Virus record (IMG/VR): IMGVR_UViG_3300028048_000086
Location: 53,974-117,973 of that record
DNA length: 64,000 nucleotides
Source: a virus
Lineage: Duplodnaviria; Caudoviricetes
Strand: one strand, 5' to 3'
The notes below the pieces were generated by a model. It was not told the DNA's origin and did no database searches. It was given only the letters and a program-made list of their open reading frames with translations. This document shows, piece by piece, positions 25,035 through 57,056 of the stretch (the stretch's first letter is position 1; each line of letters opens with the position of its first letter). The position numbers and the translations under genes were made by a program.

Positions 25035-28000
25035 TTACCACATCGTTCGACCGCCGCCAGAGTTTCGTCCTCCTGAACGACTTCCCCACGAAGAATGATA
25101 AGATCTTCCTCCGCCAGAAGTCAGAGGGACATGAACCCATTTCTGGTAGTCTCCGGGAAGCTCGCCAGGATCTTTCCCGATTTGTTTCACTCTAGTAGTA
25201 TTTTTCCATGGGTTGATAGAATTATCCAAGTCACGTAGCACGGCATTTGCCTGCCGATTCAATGGATCTACGTGAACCTGCTGGATCCTTGTCTCCGTTT
25301 TCATCGTCTTAATCGCACCCGTAAGATCGGGGAATTTCAAGACGAACGCCAAGTGGGCCAGTCCAAGAGCATCAACGAAGTGTTCGTTCTTGCTCGTATA
25401 AACCGGGACGCCCGCCTGCGAGATATGATCTACTTCATAATCAACTAATTGCTTATGAAGTACTTCATCGAATGGAGACAAGATAATTCTGCCGCGCTCG
25501 AAATTCAGCTTTAGCTGATTCACCATGAACTGCTTCATGGGCTCCTTTGTTTTTCTTCTCGTAATCGGATCTAGAATATCCAAGGTCTGTTTGAACTGAT
25601 ATCCGATAACTTTGGATTTCAAGCCTGATTCAGGATGTTGATCGCCATAGATATGCAGTCTCTCTAGCTGATAATCTCCGTATCCACGGTCACAAAAGAT
25701 CCATGATGGGCGATATATCTGATTCAGTTTTACCGTCATCTGGACGGCTTTATCTAAAGAATACTCGCTTCGCGGCACCTCTATCCTTTTCATTACCATG
25801 AACTTTTTTCTATGCACATCGAAGTCTAAGACGAGTAGAGAGCTACCGGCCTGGTAGGCATCCCAGTCAATGCCGATGCACCTAAATGGATTGTATGGTG
25901 CCAGATTTTCTTCGTCATACATGATTTCGATCGGCGGCTGCTGCCCGTTTAAGTTTCTTTTCTGAGTGTCTGTTAGAGGAGCGTACGTATAATACACCTG
26001 ATGCATTGCTTCATCGAGCTTATTCTTATCGAAGACGCCGGCTTCTTCGGTACCGAAAATCGCTAGAATTTCATGGTCATACTGAGAAGCCGTTAATTCA
26101 GCTCGATACTGATCTTCTAGCTGCTGGCTCCAATTCGGATTATCCATCGAAGGATGATAATGCTCCGAATACCCCATACCATTCGGCCTCTTATCCGTAC
26201 ACATCTGATAAAAAACGCCTCGTTTACCAGTAGGGGTAGAGGAACAAGTCATTCCGATATCTGGGCGCTCACCGGCGATCATGGCTACCGTGGAGTAATC
26301 GTTAGTTCCCATGTAGTCAATTTCATCAAGAAATAGCCAATCAGCCCTCTGTCCGCGCACAGACGCTGCGCCCTGGCCCGATGAAGCGCCGGTCGTAAAA
26401 CCGAGAATCGTCGAGCCGTTTTTGAACTCTACCGTATAAGGAGAACTCTTAATCCTCGTGATTTCATTCTTTAAGAGAGGAGACTCCGCGATCAACTCTC
26501 TCATACGCATAAATAAGAGATTTACCTGATTCTCGTACGGAGTAACGTAGAGGACACGATAATTTCGGCCTTTCGGAGCTGTCATCGCTCTCCATAAGCC
26601 TTCTATAATCATCGTCTCCGACTTCCCGCAATTATGCGTATAGATATCATTTACAACAAAATTATTGTTTTCAGGAACCATGACGCTATATGTCATAAAT
26701 TTTCCAAGATGCTCGATGCTCTTAACAGGATCCCATTCGATGTCTCCATCGCACAATTTCACGATTTCTCTCAAACCAAGATATTTTGATAATATTCGTG
26801 CTTTCCATTTTTGAAGTTTGTAGCTTTTCAAACGCAACCTTTCATTTAATGGATCGCTTGGCCATAACTTTACTAAATTTGTAAGTTTCAAGCCCTTACG
26901 TGAAATCTCCTCTTGAATTACCGGATTAATCTCTTTCGGCATAAAGAGGTCTTGCTCTTTTCCTTGCGTGATAATGTCAAAACACTTGCTTACAGCTTCT
27001 TCCTTGCCGTAAATTCCAATTTCTTCCTTGAAAATCATAAAAGAGATACGATCGCAGATGCAAAGAATCCACGCTTTTTTCTTTTTACGTATATGTGTTC
27101 TTATTCCAAAACGCAAGAGTAAATGAGCTAATTCTCTGATCAATCGCTCGGAATTCGAGCAATATCCTATCTCAGTTCTTGTTTTTTTGCCAGACGAACA
27201 TGCCCAGCCATCAGTAGAGAATAAACGAGAAATGAATAAAGCAATTTGTCTTCTTGAACTCTTAAATATTTCTTTCGGAATAAACTTGTCATCTGCTCCA
27301 TGCCCAAATACGCCATATTTTATCAAAAGCTCTTTTGCTTCATTCTTATATGTCTTGCTCAGCCGATGCTCTTTTTTTCTGATGCTGTAGTCGTAAGGAT
27401 TTCCAGAGCATTCATAATGATGAAGTTCGCATCCGTACTGGGAGACAATTTGCTTCATTTCTTCAAGTTGTTTTCCTGGCGCTTGAGTAAAGCGAATTGT
27501 CTTTCTCGTACAATTTCCATCGCCAATCATGTAAGCAAGAAATTTAGCATCATTGTCGTCAATTTCTTGATTTCCAAAAAAATTTAGCGCTAGAGGAGTA
27601 CCGACAGAATCTCCTACATTTAATTCTTCGATATTTTTCCATCCAAAGGCTGTTAACAGAGGATGATCTGCCGTAGCGTCGATAACTTTTCCGCTTTCAA
27701 GAGTTACTCTTAGAACTTCTCGCTCTCCATTTTCATTTATAATACTATTTTGCTTCGCGGTAGCTTGATATTCATCATTCAGAGAAACTACGCCAAAAGG
27801 TTTTTCTTTTTCGAATAATTCTTTTGCTGTAGAGAGCTCTCCAGTAATTGGATCAAAAATGTTTACCCATCCTGGGACACAGCGTCTTCCAAGGCGATAC
27901 ACTTTACGCAGACTAAAATCGCGAAGCATTTCTTCCTGATAGGAACGTGCCGTCCACGGGCCATGTTTCTTGGTCCCTGCGTCATACGTCCGTACGAAAG

Positions 28001-28073
28001 CTTTAGCCCATAGAACAGGGTCAGCGAAGATTTTCTTCAACTTCGCCTGCTCTACGGGCGACAATCTAGCCAT
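25035..28073 (-). CDS. terL: terminase large subunit containing an intein (595 aa after splicing)
   Basis: RSYQ, spliced Walker A GRRCGKSE, RGQRAD, Walker B LFLDE, SSTP, IGIDW, HFVDAL. Confidence 0.93.
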   Translation of the reverse strand: MARLSPVEQAKLKKIFADPVLWAKAFVRTYDAGTKKHGPWTARSYQEEMLRDFSLRKVYRLGRRCVPGWVNIFDPITGELSTAKELFEKEKPFGVVSLNDEYQATAKQNSIINENGEREVLRVTLESGKVIDATADHPLLTAFGWKNIEELNVGDSVGTPLALNFFGNQEIDDNDAKFLAYMIGDGNCTRKTIRFTQAPGKQLEEMKQIVSQYGCELHHYECSGNPYDYSIRKKEHRLSKTYKNEAKELLIKYGVFGHGADDKFIPKEIFKSSRRQIALFISRLFSTDGWACSSGKKTRTEIGYCSNSERLIRELAHLLLRFGIRTHIRKKKKAWILCICDRISFMIFKEEIGIYGKEEAVSKCFDIITQGKEQDLFMPKEINPVIQEEISRKGLKLTNLVKLWPSDPLNERLRLKSYKLQKWKARILSKYLGLREIVKLCDGDIEWDPVKSIEHLGKFMTYSVMVPENNNFVVNDIYTHNCGKSETMIIEGLWRAMTAPKGRNYRVLYVTPYENQVNLLFMRMRELIAESPLLKNEITRIKSSPYTVEFKNGSTILGFTTGASSGQGAASVRGQRADWLFLDEIDYMGTNDYSTVAMIAGERPDIGMTCSSTPTGKRGVFYQMCTDKRPNGMGYSEHYHPSMDNPNWSQQLEDQYRAELTASQYDHEILAIFGTEEAGVFDKNKLDEAMHQVYYTYAPLTDTQKRNLNGQQPPIEIMYDEENLAPYNPFRCIGIDWDAYQAGSSLLVLDFDVHRKKFMVMKRIEVPRSEYSLDKAVQMTVKLNQIYRPSWIFCDRGYGDYQLERLHIYGDQHPESGLKSKVIGYQFKQTLDILDPITRRKTKEPMKQFMVNQLKLNFERGRIILSPFDEVLHKQLVDYEVDHISQAGVPVYTSKNEHFVDALGLAHLAFVLKFPDLTGAIKTMKTETRIQQVHVDPLNRQANAVLRDLDNSINPWKNTTRVKQIGKDPGELPGDYQKWVHVPLTSGGGRSYHSSWGSRSGGRNSGGGRTMW
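26631..27881 (-). mobile_element. intein with LAGLIDADG endonuclease (417 aa)
   Basis: Begins CVPG, block B ATADHP, LAYMIGDG and LFSTDG motifs, ends THN before +1 Cys; AT-rich. Confidence 0.93.
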
Positions 28074-35350: not shown

Positions 35351-35478
35351 CTCGCCTCTATTTTACTTCTTTTGAATAGGGGCGTCAATTGTCTTCGCTC
35401 TCCTTGGGGGAGGCCAGACGTTAAAGAGGCCGTTGAAGTGTTTTTGTATAGACATGAATTCTAAAGGAGGAATATATC

Positions 35479-37638
35479 ATGTCGAACATCAATGAAATCG
35501 CCGATGTCCAGGAATCGGCCTACCGCGTTGTTGCGTGGGAGGCGAAGAAGTTCAACAATCCGTCCATCGAGGCGGATTATGAGAAGCTTGCAAAGATGCG
35601 CGGCAAGCTCGCTCCAACCACGACGCTCGTCACGAGTGATCAGGTAGAGGAGCTTATTACTCCGTACCTGCTCGCTAACCGTGTCTCCGTGGATACGGAT
35701 GACGAAGGGCGTGAAATCGTCTCCGATGATGCATCGGATGACGATGCCAAGGCTACGGGCCAGCTCGTAGCCACGAAGCTGTACCTGGATAAAGATGCCC
35801 ATGTCCAGCGTACGCTGGCTCCTATCCCGTATAACCGTGTATCCCGCTATCTTCCGAAAGAAGAAGCGACGGTTCATACGGGAACAGGCGAGTTCGTTAC
35901 GCGTGTAAGCAATTACACGCAGTTCTACCTGGTCTTCCAGCTTACGGGAGCTGATGATCAGTATGTGCTCGACCGCGAGATCTACCGTAAGGTAGGCACG
36001 GACGAATTCTATTGGGAGAACGAGTTCGATCAGCTCGTTAATATCGTCACGGGGGAGCTCGCGACGATTGACGAGCTGGGAGAATGCCTCGTGTATAACT
36101 CCCGTAAGATGCCTGGTCAGGAAAATCTGACGGCAGGCGAGAAGAAGAGCTACACGATTCAGTTCGTGTGCTCGAACTTCGGAAACATCAATGTCCGTGC
36201 GTTGAAATACGTGCTGACGTACGGTGCATCCGAGCTTCTGGCCGCGACGCCGAAGACGAGCCAGAAGGATCTGGCTCAGAAGAGCAACCGTTTGGCGCAG
36301 TACATGGCTCCGAATACTTCGGGGACATTCTTGCATAACGTTTGCTTTTTCATGGGCAAGATCAAGGACGATGACGGCAACGAGTACCGTGACGGCTTCG
36401 CTTTCGTCTTGGACGAAGCGGTGCGCCATTGCTTCGTTGTCTTGAGCAAGGGCATGTTCGCGATCTCTAAGAAAGCTTGCCAGGGCCTGGCCATCCAGAT
36501 GCGTCCGTGGCTCTGCAAGCTGGAGAGCGAGTCGGTATCCGAGGGATACATGGCTCGCTTCCTGGAACTGCGTCATGCTCTCGAAAATGCCGTGTTCGTG
36601 TACAGGGACGCGGTGACGGAAGAACAGCAGGAAGCGTTCAACGAGGCTCTTGAAAGCAAGGGCAAGAAGGGCGCTTTCGCCGGCAAGTTCGTTTTCATCG
36701 CTGATCATGAAGGTGATTGGGATGAGAACGAAGTTCCAGAGTTCTTCACGGATATCAATGGCCTGAAGGCAGAGTTCGATCTGAAGATGGGATCTACCTT
36801 CAATATCTTGTCGATGAGTCATCATAAGTCGCACAAGAACGGTGCTCACTTGAGCACGCAGCTTGTGCAGTCGATGATGATCTTCGATTACGAAGCCACG
36901 AAGAAAGTCGTCGCTCGTCATATGGAGGCGTACGTCGCCGACAAGTTTGGCGAGCTGATGAACGGCACGGGCAAGACGCCGACCGTTCAGGATGTCGAGG
37001 GTTCGCTGAAGGGACAGCTTCTCGCGAAGCTCTGCCCGGCGGTAACGACAAAGTACTATTTCCCGCTTCTCCGTTCAATTTCGAACAAGACGATGGAGGG
37101 AATGGTGCGTGTCGCCAATAACCTGAGCATCCCGACTGAGGGGGCGTACCAGAAGCTCATGGTGGATCCCGCCATGGACTTCGGCGTACGCATCTTGAAC
37201 GTCACGAAAGACGCGACGAGCAATGGCATCCTCGAGGTGCTGGCTCCGACCGTCGAAGTGACGTGCCGCGGCATTATCGTTAAGTATCCGAAGCAGCACT
37301 TCGGAGAATACGGTAAATGCCATGTCGTCTCCGTCGCTGATTATATCGCTCGTGTCAAAGCGTGCGATGAACTCAGCGAAAATGACAAAGCACTCCTCAT
37401 CGAGAAGGTTCGTCGCCTCTCGAAGGGAGTGCTTTGCGTGCCGGCAGTCGCCGAAGTCAAAAACATGCTTGCGGGCATGGATTTTGACGGTGACGCGGTC
37501 ATCCTGTTCCTTGATAGCGGTGTCGTTGCCGTGATGTGGAAAGGCGTTCCCATCGCTGTCTGCATCGACGAGAACGACGCTGGCATGCTCTCGGAAGAAG
37601 AGTATGCTGCTTATAAGGAGCAGATCTCGAAGAAGTAA
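35479..37638 (+). CDS. YonO/eukaryotic-RdRP-like two-barrel RNA polymerase, catalytic part
   Basis: Ordered motifs DGFAF, IQMRP..K, LSTQL, IP..LMVDP, KYPKQHFGE, LAGMDFDGD. Confidence 0.85.
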   Translation: MSNINEIADVQESAYRVVAWEAKKFNNPSIEADYEKLAKMRGKLAPTTTLVTSDQVEELITPYLLANRVSVDTDDEGREIVSDDASDDDAKATGQLVATKLYLDKDAHVQRTLAPIPYNRVSRYLPKEEATVHTGTGEFVTRVSNYTQFYLVFQLTGADDQYVLDREIYRKVGTDEFYWENEFDQLVNIVTGELATIDELGECLVYNSRKMPGQENLTAGEKKSYTIQFVCSNFGNINVRALKYVLTYGASELLAATPKTSQKDLAQKSNRLAQYMAPNTSGTFLHNVCFFMGKIKDDDGNEYRDGFAFVLDEAVRHCFVVLSKGMFAISKKACQGLAIQMRPWLCKLESESVSEGYMARFLELRHALENAVFVYRDAVTEEQQEAFNEALESKGKKGAFAGKFVFIADHEGDWDENEVPEFFTDINGLKAEFDLKMGSTFNILSMSHHKSHKNGAHLSTQLVQSMMIFDYEATKKVVARHMEAYVADKFGELMNGTGKTPTVQDVEGSLKGQLLAKLCPAVTTKYYFPLLRSISNKTMEGMVRVANNLSIPTEGAYQKLMVDPAMDFGVRILNVTKDATSNGILEVLAPTVEVTCRGIIVKYPKQHFGEYGKCHVVSVADYIARVKACDELSENDKALLIEKVRRLSKGVLCVPAVAEVKNMLAGMDFDGDAVILFLDSGVVAVMWKGVPIAVCIDENDAGMLSEEEYAAYKEQISKK

Positions 37639-37719
37639 TTCTATCGAGATACTGATATGTTAACACTGTTAAGGGGGGGCGTCAAGCCCCCCTATCCATG
37701 TTATAAGGAGGAATTTATC

Positions 37720-39633
37720 ATGGATAACGAAAACAAAGAGCTGCTCGGTCTCAACCTCGGTCACGATGACTTCATCAATGCGTTGGTGAATAAAAATCCT
37801 GGTCCTGGCCAGGTCATCAATGCTCATCGCATTTTCGCGGCTATTTACGCGATGGCTGACGAGGAACCCAAAGCTGCTAAAATGGCGCTGGATAAGATCT
37901 TCGGCATCGGGAAGCGCGGTGAGCATTACGTCTCGCCGATTCCACCGATGGTCGTGCGCGAGAATCTCACGATCAAGAACGTGAGTTTCTCGATGGTCCA
38001 CGAGGCCGTCGAATCGGCACGCAAGGCTGAATTCTCCTCCGTGGAAGAGATGAAGTCTTGCGCCGATGACTTCACGACATTCGCGAGAATGTTCAGTGAA
38101 GCAGTCATTGATGCTGCTAAGAAAGGTGGCATCGTGCCAATCGAGTACATCGATGCGCTCCGTTCAGCTGTCAAGCCGGAAAGCCTTCTTCATACGGAGA
38201 AGTCTTTCAATGCCGAGATCAACTGGATGACGGATAAACCCGCTCGTAAGGGCTGGGTCCGTCATCAGGATTCGAAAGCGAAGGGTGCGGTTGATGTCCT
38301 CTGCCAGCAGAAAGGTAAGAATCCTTACCGTTTCGTCGCCAAGGAAAACAGCACACAGCTCGTGCTCGAAGATCCTTGGCATGAGCTTAGCGTCGATTGC
38401 TTGAATAAGGCAGTTGATGGTTACGCGGCGAAAGTTACGGAACTGGAGCCGCATCTGTTCTCGTATTTCGTAAAGGCGGTCGCTGATCGTCGTGCGGAAG
38501 ATATGAACTTCGATGCTGTCTGTGTCATCGCGTCCAAGCTCTGGGCACAGATGAACCGCACGATCACGTCCAGCATGACGGCAGAGAAATCCGCCATCGA
38601 GACGACGGACAAGGATCAGAAACGCGCCGAGGAACGTGCGATCACGGCTCGCTATCGTGAGACGTATAACGCTCTCGGCAACGAGATTCGCCGTCAGTTC
38701 GGCCTTTTGAAGTCGAATGATATGACGGAAATGGCTATGGTTAACGCCGTAGTTAACGCCGCGTATCATGACGAGGAAGGTAAGCTCCTCGACGATGTTT
38801 CCGCAACCAACTTCGCGGATAACGTCATCGGCGAAGAGTTCTTCTCCTGGCTGAAGAAGCACCTTCTTCATAAAAAGGAGAATGTCACTGAGGAGGCTGT
38901 CGAGCCGCTGATCGGCTGTGACTTCGAAGAAGGATCCGAGATCGTATTCAAAGATTCTTTCGCGGAGAAAGACGGTCATTACGCCATGGCGGAACGTCCG
39001 AACGTCAATGGCTCGTATGTCATCAAGAAAGTTGGTGGCAAATGGGCGGCTACGAAGAAGATCGATGATATCGTCGAGTCATCGATTGACTTCGTAGAGA
39101 ATCAGGTCATGTTCATGACCTCTTCTACGTCGGAAACGGAAGAACGTCTCGTCGCGATGGCGAAGGCGGCTTCCGTGAAAGGCGCGAAAGTCACCTTGGT
39201 TCACAATACTAAGGTGAATGGCGTCCGTCAGGCTATCTTCGTTGATGGCAAAGCGTATGGCCGTTATGCCAATGCTTACGCTGATCTTTCCAAGAAGAAG
39301 GATCGTGAAGCAGCGAAGAAGCTCGGTCTCGTCATGGACAATGTCTACGATCTCGTTCAGGGTGACCTGAAGGATATCAAGATGATGTCCTATCCGGACG
39401 AACATGGCCGTAAGCATGCGAAAGCCGTCGTCGTTCTCGAGAACGTGACGAAGATTGCGTGGAACAAGGTTCCGAAGTTCAATGGTTGGGTTCCGGTCGA
39501 AAAGAAAGTAGTTAAAACGGCGAAAACCGTTAAGACGAATTTCTTCGCGGCTAAGAAGCCGGTCGTAAAAGAAGAGCCGAAGAAAGCTGCTAAGAGCGAT
39601 AAGCTCGTCAGCTTCTTCGCCAAGTATCACTAA
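37720..39633 (+). CDS. probable C-terminal part/second subunit of the RdRP-like RNA polymerase
   Basis: AAGGAGGA RBS; PGQVINAH and FSEAVIDAAKKG match the motifs that follow DxDGD in this family. Confidence 0.7.
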   Translation: MDNENKELLGLNLGHDDFINALVNKNPGPGQVINAHRIFAAIYAMADEEPKAAKMALDKIFGIGKRGEHYVSPIPPMVVRENLTIKNVSFSMVHEAVESARKAEFSSVEEMKSCADDFTTFARMFSEAVIDAAKKGGIVPIEYIDALRSAVKPESLLHTEKSFNAEINWMTDKPARKGWVRHQDSKAKGAVDVLCQQKGKNPYRFVAKENSTQLVLEDPWHELSVDCLNKAVDGYAAKVTELEPHLFSYFVKAVADRRAEDMNFDAVCVIASKLWAQMNRTITSSMTAEKSAIETTDKDQKRAEERAITARYRETYNALGNEIRRQFGLLKSNDMTEMAMVNAVVNAAYHDEEGKLLDDVSATNFADNVIGEEFFSWLKKHLLHKKENVTEEAVEPLIGCDFEEGSEIVFKDSFAEKDGHYAMAERPNVNGSYVIKKVGGKWAATKKIDDIVESSIDFVENQVMFMTSSTSETEERLVAMAKAASVKGAKVTLVHNTKVNGVRQAIFVDGKAYGRYANAYADLSKKKDREAAKKLGLVMDNVYDLVQGDLKDIKMMSYPDEHGRKHAKAVVVLENVTKIAWNKVPKFNGWVPVEKKVVKTAKTVKTNFFAAKKPVVKEEPKKAAKSDKLVSFFAKYH

Positions 39634-39771
39634 GTATTATTATCTCAAGGATGAGAGGGGAAGGGTGCATGGATGCACCCGTACTAATGCAGCCATCGGC
39701 GGTCCAAAGCCCGCGTGAGAAATGCAGATGGGTACGTTTATTTTCTACCGTTAAAGAGAGGAATGGTAAAA

Positions 39772-54799: not shown

Positions 54800-54893
54800 G
54801 GGCAGATACTCAAGTGGCTATAAGAGGACAGTCTTGAAAACTGTGAGCTCGTAGTGATACGAGGCGGGGGTTCGAATCCCTCTCTGCCCGCCA
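54800..54893 (+). tRNA. tRNA-Ser(UGA)
   Basis: Cloverleaf, long variable arm, GTTCGAATCC, CCA end. Confidence 0.9.
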
Positions 54894-54943
54894 TTATTTT
54901 TTTAGTTCTATTTCCTAGAGCTCTTCCATGGGAGCTCTTAAAA

Positions 54944-55020
<77 letters not shown>

Positions 55021-55022
55021 AC

Positions 55023-55096
55023 GCGGATATAGTGTAGTGGTAACACCTCAGCCCTCCAAGCTGATATCACGGGTTCAAATCCCGCTGTCCGCTCCA
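55023..55096 (+). tRNA. tRNA-Gly(UCC)
   Basis: TCAGC-CCTCCAA-GCTGA anticodon arm, CCA end. Confidence 0.88.
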
Positions 55097-55185
55097 AAGA
55101 ATATAAAAGCGTAAGCTTTTATATAAAGGTTTACCCCCTATATGAGGTTGATACGCGTCGCTTGCTAAGGCGTATCAACCGTCAA

Positions 55186-55261
55186 GGCTCCGTAGACAAG
55201 TCGGTTAAGTCAGCGGGTTTTCATCCCGCGATCGTCGGTTCAAGTCCGGCCGGAGTCACCA
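55186..55261 (+). tRNA. tRNA-Glu(UUC)
   Basis: GCGGG-TTTTCAT-CCCGC anticodon arm, CCA end. Confidence 0.9.
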
Positions 55262-55265
55262 TTAT

Positions 55266-55340
55266 GCCGGTATAGCACAACGGTAGTGCATCTGACTTGT
55301 AATCAGAAGGTTGTAGGTTCAAATCCTATTGCCGGCTCCA
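55266..55340 (+). tRNA. tRNA-Thr(UGU)
   Basis: TCTGA-CTTGTAA-TCAGA anticodon arm, CCA end. Confidence 0.92.
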
Positions 55341-55346
55341 TTTAAA

Positions 55347-55432
55347 GCCGAAGTGGTGGAATGGCAGACACGAAACGTTTAGGCCGTTTTGAGCGAGAGC
55401 TCGTGCAGGTTCAAGTCCTGTCTTCGGTACCA
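55347..55432 (+). tRNA. tRNA-Leu(UAG)
   Basis: AAACG-TTTAGGC-CGTTT anticodon arm, long variable arm, CCA end. Confidence 0.88.
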
Positions 55433-55437
55433 TTTAT

Positions 55438-55525
55438 GCCTGAGTGGTGGAATTGGCATACACATTGGACTTAAAATCCGACGCTCGCTAAGAGCATACG
55501 GGTTCAAATCCCGTCTCAGGCACCA
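55438..55525 (+). tRNA. tRNA-Leu(UAA)
   Basis: TTGGA-CTTAAAA-TCCGA anticodon arm, long variable arm, CCA end. Confidence 0.9.
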
Positions 55526-55534
55526 TGAAAATTT

Positions 55535-56135
55535 ATCGACGTATCAAACATGAAAGCGAGAGAACCTAGTGCATGAACGCGATGCCACGCGTCTAGGAGT
55601 ATCTGAAGAAACCATACGGATGAGGAGCCTCGGGTGATAGTCCGAGATACTCACGTCAGTTCCTGTTAGGCGAAAGTCGCAGGGCGGCATCTTGAAAGAT
55701 AGATGTTTCCGATAGGATACGTGCTTCTCGCGAAAGAGGATAATGCTCGTTTTGATCGTACGTCCCACAAGAGTTCTTATGAACCGCCAGATAAGGTCGC
55801 GCTTGCCGGCGCGGCATAACTCGCGGCAAAAGGCATCAAGGGATAGGCTATGATGCCGGAGAAATCCGGATATAAGTACGATAGCGGAACGATTAGCGCA
55901 TAGGCCGTTATAATGGTGCCTGAAAAAGGCGAAAAATATAACAATGCTGAATGGTGCGTGAAAGTTGGGAGTCCTAGTCTCCCTCGGATCACCGTGTTCT
56001 TTTAGAACGCGGGGTATAGGAAGCGCGGATTAGCTACCCGTTGCTCAGCCCTATATCGTCCGGTAGCATAATCATCCAGAGTCGTAAGAGGGGTATGGCG
56101 AAAGCTGCTCCCGCTTTCATGTTTGATGCGCCGAT
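55535..56135 (+). ncRNA. ROOL-like large structured RNA (about 600 nt)
   Basis: About 28 bp terminal helix between 55535-55562 and 56108-56135; many internal hairpins; size and tRNA-cluster context match ROOL. Confidence 0.65.
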
Positions 56136-56162
56136 GAGATTGAAAGAGGTATACAGAAACTC

Positions 56163-56348
56163 ATGCCTATTTACAATATGTTTTCTTTAGGAATTTCCTT
56201 CGTCGTATTCTTCTTCCTGGTCTTCGCTATTTCCGTAACGGGATTCATGGCGTATGATCTCGCCTCTTTCGTCGTAGATATTATCAAGGAAAAGAGGCGA
56301 GGAAAGAAAGATGAAGAATCGGACATTTATTTTTATGACAGAAGATGA
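56163..56348 (+). CDS. small membrane protein
   Basis: 61 aa with a hydrophobic stretch; GAGG RBS. Confidence 0.5.
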   Translation: MPIYNMFSLGISFVVFFFLVFAISVTGFMAYDLASFVVDIIKEKRRGKKDEESDIYFYDRR

Positions 56349-56415
56349 ATGGCTCCTGACCGCCTGCGTTATCGCGGCGGCCGCATTCACGTTCTTCTTC
56401 GGTGAATAAATATAT

Positions 56416-56490
56416 CGGGGTATCGTCAAGTGGTTAAGACACGGGACTTTGACTCCCGCATCACCGGTTCAAATCCGGTTACCCCCGCCA
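56416..56490 (+). tRNA. tRNA-Gln(UUG)
   Basis: CGGGA-CTTTGAC-TCCCG anticodon arm, CCA end. Confidence 0.88.
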
Positions 56491-56491
56491 T

Positions 56492-56569
56492 AGGGATATA
56501 GCTCAATTGGTAGAGCAGCGGTCTCCAAAACCGTCGGTTGAATAGGTTCGAATCCTTCTATCCCTGCCA
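56492..56569 (+). tRNA. tRNA-Trp(CCA)
   Basis: GCGGT-CTCCAAA-ACCGT anticodon arm, CCA end; irregular T stem. Confidence 0.85.
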
Positions 56570-56972
56570 TATGGTTCTCGATGGAGTAGTGGCCAGAGAG
56601 AACCCGACTTTGGTGTTCGTATCTCCTTGCGATCTCCTCTCTTCTAGGTGAACGGAAGAGAGGAGATATTACCGGTCAGAGAAGGCAATACCTTTGATAG
56701 ACCGATCACCTACTTTCACCTCTATCGCTTTCAAGGTGAATGAAAGCGCGGCCCGAAGAAGGCGACCTTTCCGGATAGCCTAGGAATAGAAGTCCCCGGA
56801 AAGGCTTTATGATTCGAACGAGGCAATACCTCGGAAGAATCTATTTTCAAGTTCATAGACCCAGACGGTCAGATGAACGACGGTTATCTCGATGATCGTA
56901 GTTTTTTAGGAGAAGATCCGTCTCCGATATCTGAAACTGATCGAGAGTCCTAGGCATGACATAACTGCCTAT
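56570..56972 (+). ncRNA. candidate structured RNA (about 400 nt) between tRNA-Trp and the CAU tRNA
   Basis: ORF-free run of hairpins; two AGGCAATACCT elements. Confidence 0.4.
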
Positions 56973-56979
56973 TTATCAT

Positions 56980-57056
56980 GCTCCTCTAGCTCAGTTGGTT
57001 AGAGCATCCGGCTCATAACCGGCTGGTCCTCAGTTCAAGTCTGAGGGGGAGCACCA
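56980..57056 (+). tRNA. tRNA with CAU anticodon (Ile2 or elongator Met)
   Basis: CCGG-CTCATAA-CCGG arm; paired G1-C72, so not an initiator; CCA end. Confidence 0.88.

Follow-up and report, generated by a model that had tools for sequence, protein, structure and literature searches.

Can an RNA polymerase (RNAP) of a clade described as single-subunit, that of QDE-1, RDR2, YonO, gp66 and gp64 (PMC10770324, PMC5467207), be made as two separate proteins? The question is raised by a pair of adjacent open reading frames, ORF1 and ORF2, in a large uncultured phage from cattle gut (IMG/VR record IMGVR_UViG_3300028048_000086), which appear to encode an RNA polymerase in just this way. Both lie on the plus strand of the 64,000-nucleotide stretch analysed here, hereafter the window, which is the final 64 kb of the 117,973-bp record and to which all coordinates refer unless another sequence is named. 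An original prediction, made from the letters alone, had read the two genes as a YonO-like or RNA-dependent RNA polymerase (RdRP)-like enzyme, normally a single chain, cut right after its catalytic loop and possibly subject to regulated readthrough. Our analysis favours, with a probability of roughly 0.82, the view that ORF1 and ORF2 are two subunits of one heterodimeric two-barrel RNA polymerase of the QDE-1/RDR2/YonO/gp66/P23-45 gp64 clade. ORF1 carries both barrels together with the metal and phosphate ligands, and ORF2 is the collinear continuation of its fold. Template and incoming nucleoside triphosphate (NTP) would be positioned by parts of ORF2, namely the bridge helix and an element resembling a trigger loop (I130-D131-x-x-K134), so that ORF1 alone would presumably be inactive or crippled.

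ORF1 (719 aa; 35479..37638) comprises, by family profile, AlphaFold2 (AF2) modelling, Foldseek and VIA, an N-terminal region, a beta-like double-psi beta-barrel (DPBB-B), a helical connector and a second barrel (DPBB-A), the layout of a putative catalytic subunit. A search of 1.84 billion proteins with a family profile built from five ORF1 homologs yielded 365 representatives, and in alignments of 54 and 153 family members eight residues, D305, R342, K347, K602, P604, D668, D670 and D672, proved to be invariant or nearly so. The first three are the active-site residues of DPBB-B, within the motifs YRDG and IQMRPWLCK (36391..36519, plus strand). K602-Y-P604 of KYPK (37282..37290, plus strand) is equivalent to the R-x-P "Pro-gate" loop of DPBB-A, with P604 nearly invariant and position 602 occupied by K or R across the family (K in ORF1), and the family-invariant DFDGD within LAGMDFDGD (37480..37494, plus strand) is the catalytic metal-binding loop. 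Ruprich-Robert and Thuriaux (PMC2919709) list eight residues that every two-barrel RNAP keeps invariant, namely Asp, Arg/Lys and Lys in barrel B and Arg/Lys-x-Pro plus DxDxD in barrel A; in QDE-1 these are D709, R738, K743, R962, P964, D1007, D1009 and D1011 (PMC2919709), and the R962-x-P964 loop is described in PMC9508822. The order and spacing of the conserved residues in ORF1 are those of this universal set, which places ORF1 among the two-barrel enzymes, and both barrels, B (D305/R342/K347) before A (K602/P604/D668-672), lie in one polypeptide. The family profile aligned the DYDGD of QDE-1 weakly to the DFDGD of ORF1 (E 0.15-0.5).

With both barrels in ORF1, the cut differs from the division between beta and beta-prime, in agreement with the original prediction, and the enzyme is not a multisubunit RNAP of the beta/beta-prime, phiKZ/AR9 type: neither ORF matched the Rpb1 or Rpb2 models of Pfam at E <= 1. 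Similarly, a search of the record with PF00623 (Rpb1 domain 2) returned nothing, while its controls scored in 14 of 14 genomes, and the ORF1 profile found no second paralog in the record. The T7/N4-type model (PF00940) was blank in the record and its control search was equally blank everywhere; given the predicted fold, that family is irrelevant to ORF1 and ORF2.

The fold was modelled as a read-through product of positions 35890-39489 (1200 aa, TAA read as Q), with a 76-row alignment of fused and split relatives as AF2 input. The model reached a mean predicted local distance difference test score (pLDDT) of 88 and a predicted template-modelling score (pTM) of 0.86, with ORF1 residues 138-719 confident and the translated spacer (model residues 588-614) as its sole disordered stretch. 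All 22 Foldseek matches in the PDB at E <= 0.001 were QDE-1, plant RDR2 or crAss gp66 (best E 5.6e-11). QDE-1 was also the best partner by VIA (Z 17-18; Z 18.0 and root-mean-square deviation 4.0 Å over 638 aligned residues for model 1-1003 against QDE-1 511-1353), with RDR2 at Z 15-18, gp66 at Z 6.6, and Pol II Rpb1 and bacterial beta at Z about 4 over the barrel regions. Superposition of the model, a predicted and not a solved structure, on QDE-1 and RDR2 brings out a two-barrel active centre, and by the same predicted structure the enzyme is closest to QDE-1, the RDRs and gp66 and not to multisubunit RNAPs. The match to QDE-1 takes in ORF1 and ORF2 residues 1 to about 393 (model residue 1003 is ORF2 residue 393); therefore, the first two thirds of ORF2 are the counterpart of the QDE-1 region downstream of its catalytic loop. 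YonO is a different matter: in a single hhalign comparison the 76-row family profile reached a probability of 11% (E 0.0028), only KYPK...DFDGD aligning, with the DNDGD of YonO, and no YonO structure was among the Foldseek matches to the PDB. The enzyme belongs to a QDE-1/RdRP-like clade and is "YonO-like" in the broad sense only, so that of the two names first given to it the RdRP half stands through the fold match to QDE-1 and RDR2, while the kinship to YonO itself is weak. Among phage proteins, UniProt names similar ones "RNA dependent RNA polymerase", and two such proteins are among the BFVD matches to the model. Three separate proteins of "Myoviridae sp. ctJ2i1" (350, 369 and 239 aa) also match it in BFVD, though the smallest reaches no better than E 0.1; should their matches fall on different parts of the model, the genome deposited under that name may encode a polymerase in several pieces.

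ORF2 (637 aa; 37720..39633, plus strand) has the makings of a second subunit. Elements resembling a bridge helix and a trigger loop are joined in it by a helical domain of head/neck type and, at the C-terminus, a domain rich in beta strands. Over its full length ORF2 can be aligned with residues 738-1341 of one fused relative (P0026, 1391 aa, E 6e-23) and with residues 666-1220 of another (P0032, 1429 aa, E 2e-19), and ORF1 plus ORF2 are collinear with single-chain relatives of 1200-1500 aa. The claim that ORF2 is the C-terminal continuation of an RdRP/QDE-1-type polymerase made as two proteins is thus upheld by both the fold match and this collinearity. Two motifs that had been singled out in ORF2 are indeed there. 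PGQVINAH (residues 28-35; 37801..37824, plus strand) is kept as N..vG.vTv.H at the N-terminus of ORF2 homologs and internally in fused forms, and its region would be the start of the bridge helix. SEAVIDAAKKG (residues 126-136) lies within RMFSEAVIDAAKKG (residues 123-136; 38086..38127, plus strand), in which R123, E127, I130, D131 and K134 are invariant in 10 ORF2 homologs. The pattern I130-D131-x-x-K134, inside the fold-matched region, matches V1115-D1116-x-x-K1119 of the QDE-1 trigger loop, where V1115, D1116 and K1119 contact the incoming NTP (PMC9508822); residues 123-136 would be the trigger-loop tip, with residue-level equivalence to QDE-1. Barrel A is followed by the bridge helix and trigger loop in cellular RNAPs as well as in QDE-1, gp66 and the enzymes of P23-45 (PMC10770324; bioRxiv 2020.03.07.982082). 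The C-terminal domain of ORF2 (about residues 394-590; 38899..39489, plus strand) lies outside the QDE-1 match; the corresponding model residues 1004-1200 are mostly strands (pLDDT about 62-94) and have no PDB match above Z about 4 by VIA.

Prediction of a complex, a check that had been suggested for this locus, was carried out without a linker on ORF1 250-719 and ORF2 1-400 with a separate alignment for each, in three runs. The median interaction prediction score from aligned errors (ipSAE) was 0.79 (0.77-0.85) as against 0.01 for the best control; in calibration of the tool 58 of 80 solved complexes passed, as did 2 of 110 mismatched pairs. The runs have at least 78% of their contacts in common, with a partner pLDDT of at least 78, and the predicted interface takes in two segments of ORF1 on the flanks of the catalytic loop (604-610 and 657-665) and two of ORF2 (29-44 and 119-142), so that both PGQVINAH and the putative trigger-loop tip are placed against ORF1. 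Some of this score may stem from resemblance to the single-chain structures of QDE-1 and RDR2 that have already been solved. We infer from these models that ORF1 and ORF2 probably associate non-covalently through a large interface.

The boundary between the two genes is simple. ORF1 ends at a TAA (37636..37638, plus strand), the split point, 47 aa past D672, close to the 45 aa first estimated, and is followed by an 81-nt intergenic spacer (37639..37719, plus strand). ORF2 has a separate ribosome-binding site (RBS), AAGGAGG (37706..37712, plus strand), as had been noted; it stands 7 nt ahead of the ATG at 37720, which is likely the ORF2 start, and relatives retain a GGAGG-type site. The same AAGGAGG, read from the sequence, precedes ORF1 (35464..35470, plus strand), ending 8 nt before the ATG at 35479. 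With two genes, separate translation signals and a conserved split, the catalytic unit is not a single subunit.

That the split is conserved is evident from the family as a whole. Among the 150 best family representatives 73 are split-type, ending no more than 90 residues past the ORF1 profile, and 65 are fused, continuing for at least 300 residues; the split-type relatives terminate at the place equivalent to the TAA of ORF1. Relatives therefore share the split, and the description of the polymerase as normally single-chain holds for the characterised enzymes but not within the ORF1 family, about half of whose representatives are split. Mapped on a tree of 124 representatives, the split or fused state calls for at least 12 changes, of which well-supported branches force at least 7; the clade that holds the window has 15 split members and 1 fused. 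An ORF2-like gene adjoins an ORF1-like gene in nine other loci (L001, L002, L004 and L006-L011), and a word-index search with the ORF2 alignment returned close relatives only. Fused and split forms can be near neighbours: the split protein P0024 and the product of the gene beside it (L009:6162-8156), taken together, share 48.7% identity with the fused P0026 over 1336 aa, with the junction in a variable, poorly conserved linker, and the split position of the window maps into this variable linker of P0026 as well. The split, shared by many relatives, has thus been made or healed repeatedly. Both halves are also under purifying selection, the ratio of nonsynonymous to synonymous substitution rates (dN/dS) against the 82%-identical L004 being 0.147 for ORF1 and 0.161 for ORF2.

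The arrangement of the two genes varies around this theme. For example, the cut in L001 (L001:28-3930) falls about 60 residues later than in the window, so that N..vG.vTv.H ends ORF1 instead of opening ORF2, and L002 (L002:4924-8903) has three genes, of 673, 326 and 304 aa, the second half being cut again. The two genes overlap by 4 nt in L010, and in L011 (L011:422-4420) their order is reversed, the ORF2-like gene (422-2320; E 2.5e-13 to the ORF2 profile) lying upstream of the ORF1-like P0044 (2393-4420). In L012 (L012:1-2777) the 890-aa P0106 begins just before barrel A and continues through the ORF2-like part; the 100 nt ahead of it are the tail of an ORF, itself cut by the contig end, that resembles the connector before barrel A of the fused P0052, which suggests a second split site, between the two barrels.

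Two alternatives concern the stop itself. As first described, ORF1 and ORF2 share a frame with a lone TAA and no further stop between them, so that readthrough would give 719 + 1 + 27 + 637 = 1384 aa, and programmed readthrough, perhaps aided by the GC-rich hairpin 35 nt past the stop, could make that single chain the functional or regulated form; against a frameshift-site model of Rfam the hairpin reaches 19.4 bits at E 0.33, below the gathering score of 34. We consider this very improbable. A shared frame is not above chance (prior odds 1/3), and it is common only to the window and L001, being different in L002, L004 and L006-L009; L002 has a second in-frame stop, and in two close strains (X4 and X5), found in wastewater and pig gut, the spacer has lost 1 nt, at 37703. 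Since the frame varies in these ways and the genes may overlap or stand in reversed order, nothing selects for a continuous frame, and the idea of regulated readthrough is not supported; the strong RBS and ATG of ORF2 and the disorder of the translated spacer in the model point the same way. The view that faulty sequencing or assembly produced the stop, or that a single-chain gene was recently inactivated by mutation, finds some encouragement in the existence of single-chain relatives as long as ORF1 and ORF2 together, and is nonetheless scarcely credible. Proteins of the two lengths, 719 aa for ORF1 and 637-643 aa for ORF2, turn up again in clusters of 83 and 88 members that were assembled independently from different sources, contigs from three other DNA runs span the junction unchanged, and the common end point of 73 of the 150 best representatives, the RBS and ATG ahead of ORF2, and a dN/dS of about 0.15 in both halves are not those of a broken gene or a misread base.

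The remaining alternatives accept two genuine genes and differ over what they do. All eight invariant catalytic residues are in ORF1, which might make it a complete minimal polymerase with ORF2 as a dispensable accessory or specificity factor, a reading that we think has very little chance of being right: ORF2 aligns with the part of QDE-1 after the catalytic loop, the site of the bridge helix and trigger loop in QDE-1, gp66 and cellular enzymes, its motifs are invariant across homologs, an ORF2-type part is always present in fused forms, and ORF2 adjoins ORF1 in every split locus examined for which the flank was available. As for template, the enzyme would be DNA-dependent and, as a non-virion polymerase, would serve to transcribe part of the genome of the phage, a role suggested by analogy with YonO and P23-45 gp64 and by its place in the replication and early-gene module, next to a Dda-like helicase. 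The other possibility is that it mainly copies RNA, or RNA and DNA like QDE-1, making double-stranded or antisense RNA or primers and not phage transcripts. Its top structural matches, QDE-1 and RDR2, are RNA-dependent polymerases, QDE-1 accepts both DNA and RNA templates (PMC9508822), and the UniProt name of similar phage proteins would agree; the characterised phage members of the clade, YonO (PMC5467207), gp66 and P23-45 gp64/gp96, are instead all DNA-dependent and transcribe phage genes, and the gene lies in the replication module of a DNA phage. Template choice cannot be read from sequence, and on this balance we hold a mainly RNA-copying role to be unlikely.

Several points tell against a heterodimeric polymerase of the QDE-1 clade. 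Pfam and PHROG scans of ORF1 and ORF2 gave no match, and phmmer and profile searches of PDB sequences gave nothing, or sub-significant QDE-1 matches limited to the DxDGD stretch; the RdRP model of Pfam (PF05183) matched neither ORF at E <= 1 (hmmscan) and none of seven fused relatives at E <= 0.01. In the read-through model the junction of the two chains is artificial and could favour their packing, and by sequence the kinship to SPbeta YonO itself is only weakly detectable. The bridge-helix and trigger-loop labels are drawn from a range-level structural match and a motif pattern, and YonO was reported to have no detectable trigger-loop homology (PMC5467207). The record, at an estimated completeness of 46%, may not hold every polymerase of the phage.

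Comparison with known systems helps to place the proposed heterodimer. QDE-1 of Neurospora and plant RDR2 (PDB 2J7N, 7Y7P-T, 7W84, 7ROZ), the best fold matches of ORF1 plus ORF2, have the same domain order (barrel B, barrel A, then the region that in ORF2 would be bridge helix and trigger loop), the eight invariant residues and the DxDGD loop. They differ in being eukaryotic single chains, QDE-1 as a homodimer, whereas the phage enzyme is two polypeptides; sequence identity is about 11%, PF05183 fails to match, the N-terminal parts differ, and the phage ORF2 has an additional C-terminal beta domain. YonO of SPbeta, which is DNA-dependent and transcribes the late genes of SPbeta (PMC5467207), serves as the functional model for ORF1 plus ORF2: it is a phage two-barrel polymerase of the same clade with both barrels in one reading frame and a DxDGD loop, but a single chain of 839 aa whose similarity to the ORF1 family is weak and confined to barrel-A motifs. 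The virion polymerase gp66 of crAss (PDB 6VR4) belongs to this clade as well (VIA Z 6.6, Foldseek E 7e-7), but is a protein of about 2200 aa with the loop DFDID.

For the position of the cut, the closest parallel is outside the clade. The beta-prime splits of jumbo-phage RNAPs and of cyanobacteria share one site, different from the archaeal site (Sokolova et al., PMC7598289), and as in cyanobacterial rpoC1/rpoC2 and phiKZ/AR9 beta-prime, the latter also from large phages, the polymerase studied here is cut right after DPBB-A and before the putative bridge helix. In those enzymes, however, which belong to the other major clade, the barrels are on separate beta and beta-prime subunits, while ORF1 keeps both. 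Broken RNAP genes are also on record in Zeta-group crAss-like phages, where stops and frameshifts interrupt the ORFs, with boundaries that vary between close relatives and are unexplained (Yutin et al., PMC7886860); there the breaks fall even within conserved motifs, whereas the cut between ORF1 and ORF2 is clean, conserved, in a linker, and followed by an RBS of its own. In the literature we found no description of a clean, conserved two-gene form of the QDE-1/YonO clade.

Phage P23-45 offers a further comparison, having two clade-2 two-barrel polymerases, the non-virion gp64 and the virion gp96, which is fused to the tape measure (PMC10770324). Both are single chains, unlike ORF1 plus ORF2, and gp64 is among the weak BFVD matches to our model. 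The present record may resemble P23-45 in having one polymerase tied to the tail and one not, as its tail region, upstream of the window, holds a candidate, a 3006-aa ORF on the minus strand (L014:20-9040, equal to G000:C1:39319-48339). It sits among three giant minus-strand ORFs (2846, 3006 and 2195 aa) and contains a single DxDxD (DFDSD, residue 2390) with an R-x-P (LRQP) 38 residues earlier; it matched neither PHROG nor the ORF1 profile, and Pfam only below threshold (PAP_NTPase, E 0.018). If this ORF encodes a two-barrel polymerase of the virion, as it may, the phage would have two such enzymes.

We regard the split polymerase as a real heterodimeric form of an enzyme clade that is described as single-subunit, with its cut placed as in cyanobacterial and jumbo-phage beta-prime. 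In discussions of how the multisubunit polymerases of cells arose, enzymes of the QDE-1/YonO clade figure as possible likenesses of a one-chain ancestor, and the long-standing question of how easily two-barrel polymerases pass between one chain and several, and at which sites a cut is tolerated, here becomes testable at the bench: close fused and split pairs (49% identity), shifted, three-way and swapped-order variants, and a probable cut between the barrels constitute natural material for it. Gene callers and annotation pipelines label both halves as hypothetical proteins, so that in hundreds of large uncultured phages of gut and wastewater a polymerase encoded by the phage itself goes unannotated.

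The spacer between the genes has features of its own. Its GC-rich hairpin (37673..37693, plus strand), part of the original description, has the stem GGGGGGC/GCCCCCC at 37674-37680 and 37686-37692, which a flanking pair extends to 8 pairs around the 5-nt loop GUCAA. A scan of the whole 118-kb record found just 15 such GC-rich hairpins, one of them 30 nt past the ORF2 stop (39663..39680, plus strand). Hairpins of unrelated sequence occupy the same place in the spacers of L004, L007, L008 and L009, followed by U-rich tracts in L007-L009, and L006 has none. As a terminator in its own right the window hairpin was rejected, having no U-run after it and not being called by a terminator scan. On the simplest reading the hairpin would be an RNA element marking the end of a gene, acting as a leaky terminator or as a 3' stabiliser, and it could at the same time set the subunit ratio; a recoding signal it probably is not.

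Some observations on RNA concern the end of ORF1. One contig of a cattle-gut metatranscriptome (X15), 196 nt long and without a mismatch to the 3' end of ORF1 (its last 196 nt, 37442-37637), has a depth of 821, the other contigs of this run on the stretch having depths of 2-4; the abundant RNA may be a stable decay fragment or an antisense RNA. Folding of 37442-37650 gives -98.8 kcal/mol and z -7.5 on the plus strand (z -3.7 on the minus strand), and the predicted structure is kept in L004. We do not claim a functional RNA element here, the whole mRNA being highly structured and synonymous change not suppressed (0.32 as against 0.36), and Rfam gave sub-threshold matches only. A sigma-70-like promoter (TTGACG-17-TAACAT with TG) lies on the minus strand at 37657-37685, directed backwards out of the spacer with its -35 box in the loop of the GC hairpin, and a weak terminator-like hairpin with a T-run stands about 190 nt downstream (37454-37479, minus strand); an antisense RNA running from the one to the other would cover the end of ORF1. 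In L004 no recognisable counterpart of the promoter is kept. The recurrent spacer hairpins, the host-type promoter with its -35 box in the hairpin loop and the abundant RNA of about 196 nt are our reasons for mentioning a speculative and rather unlikely extension, in which the split serves regulation and is not neutral fission: the halves would be made in controlled amounts through the spacer, with the RNA as a cis-antisense or processed regulator of the ORF1:ORF2 ratio or of the timing of polymerase assembly.

The wider setting is that of a large tailed phage. The window codes for a tail sheath, a portal, a large terminase, a Dda-like helicase and ten tRNAs, and since relatives reside on contigs of up to 210 kb the phage is probably a jumbo phage. 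The stretch or close variants of it turn up in sequencing runs whose labels name the gut of cattle, sheep and pig, manure and wastewater; contigs from four of these runs were compared with the window, and tblastn and megablast found no similar sequence in 50,697 deposited phage genomes. The tRNA genes (Ser, Arg, Gly, Glu, Thr, two Leu, Gln, Trp and Met) are clustered at 54800-57056 on the plus strand. The terminase ORF (1012 aa; 25035-28073, minus strand) is matched by terminase profiles over residues 387-915 and by primase-, helicase- or head-protein-type PHROGs over its first ~350 residues, and the terminase gene of the relative L004 has intein and LAGLIDADG Pfam matches. Downstream of ORF2, CCCTNATAWAACT occurs in eight exact copies, all on the plus strand between 42595 and 49057, where 0.38 would be expected; the 118-kb record has no other copy, and most copies are followed by GAGGA-type leaders. 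These sites are candidate promoters of a phage polymerase or of a phage-directed host polymerase.

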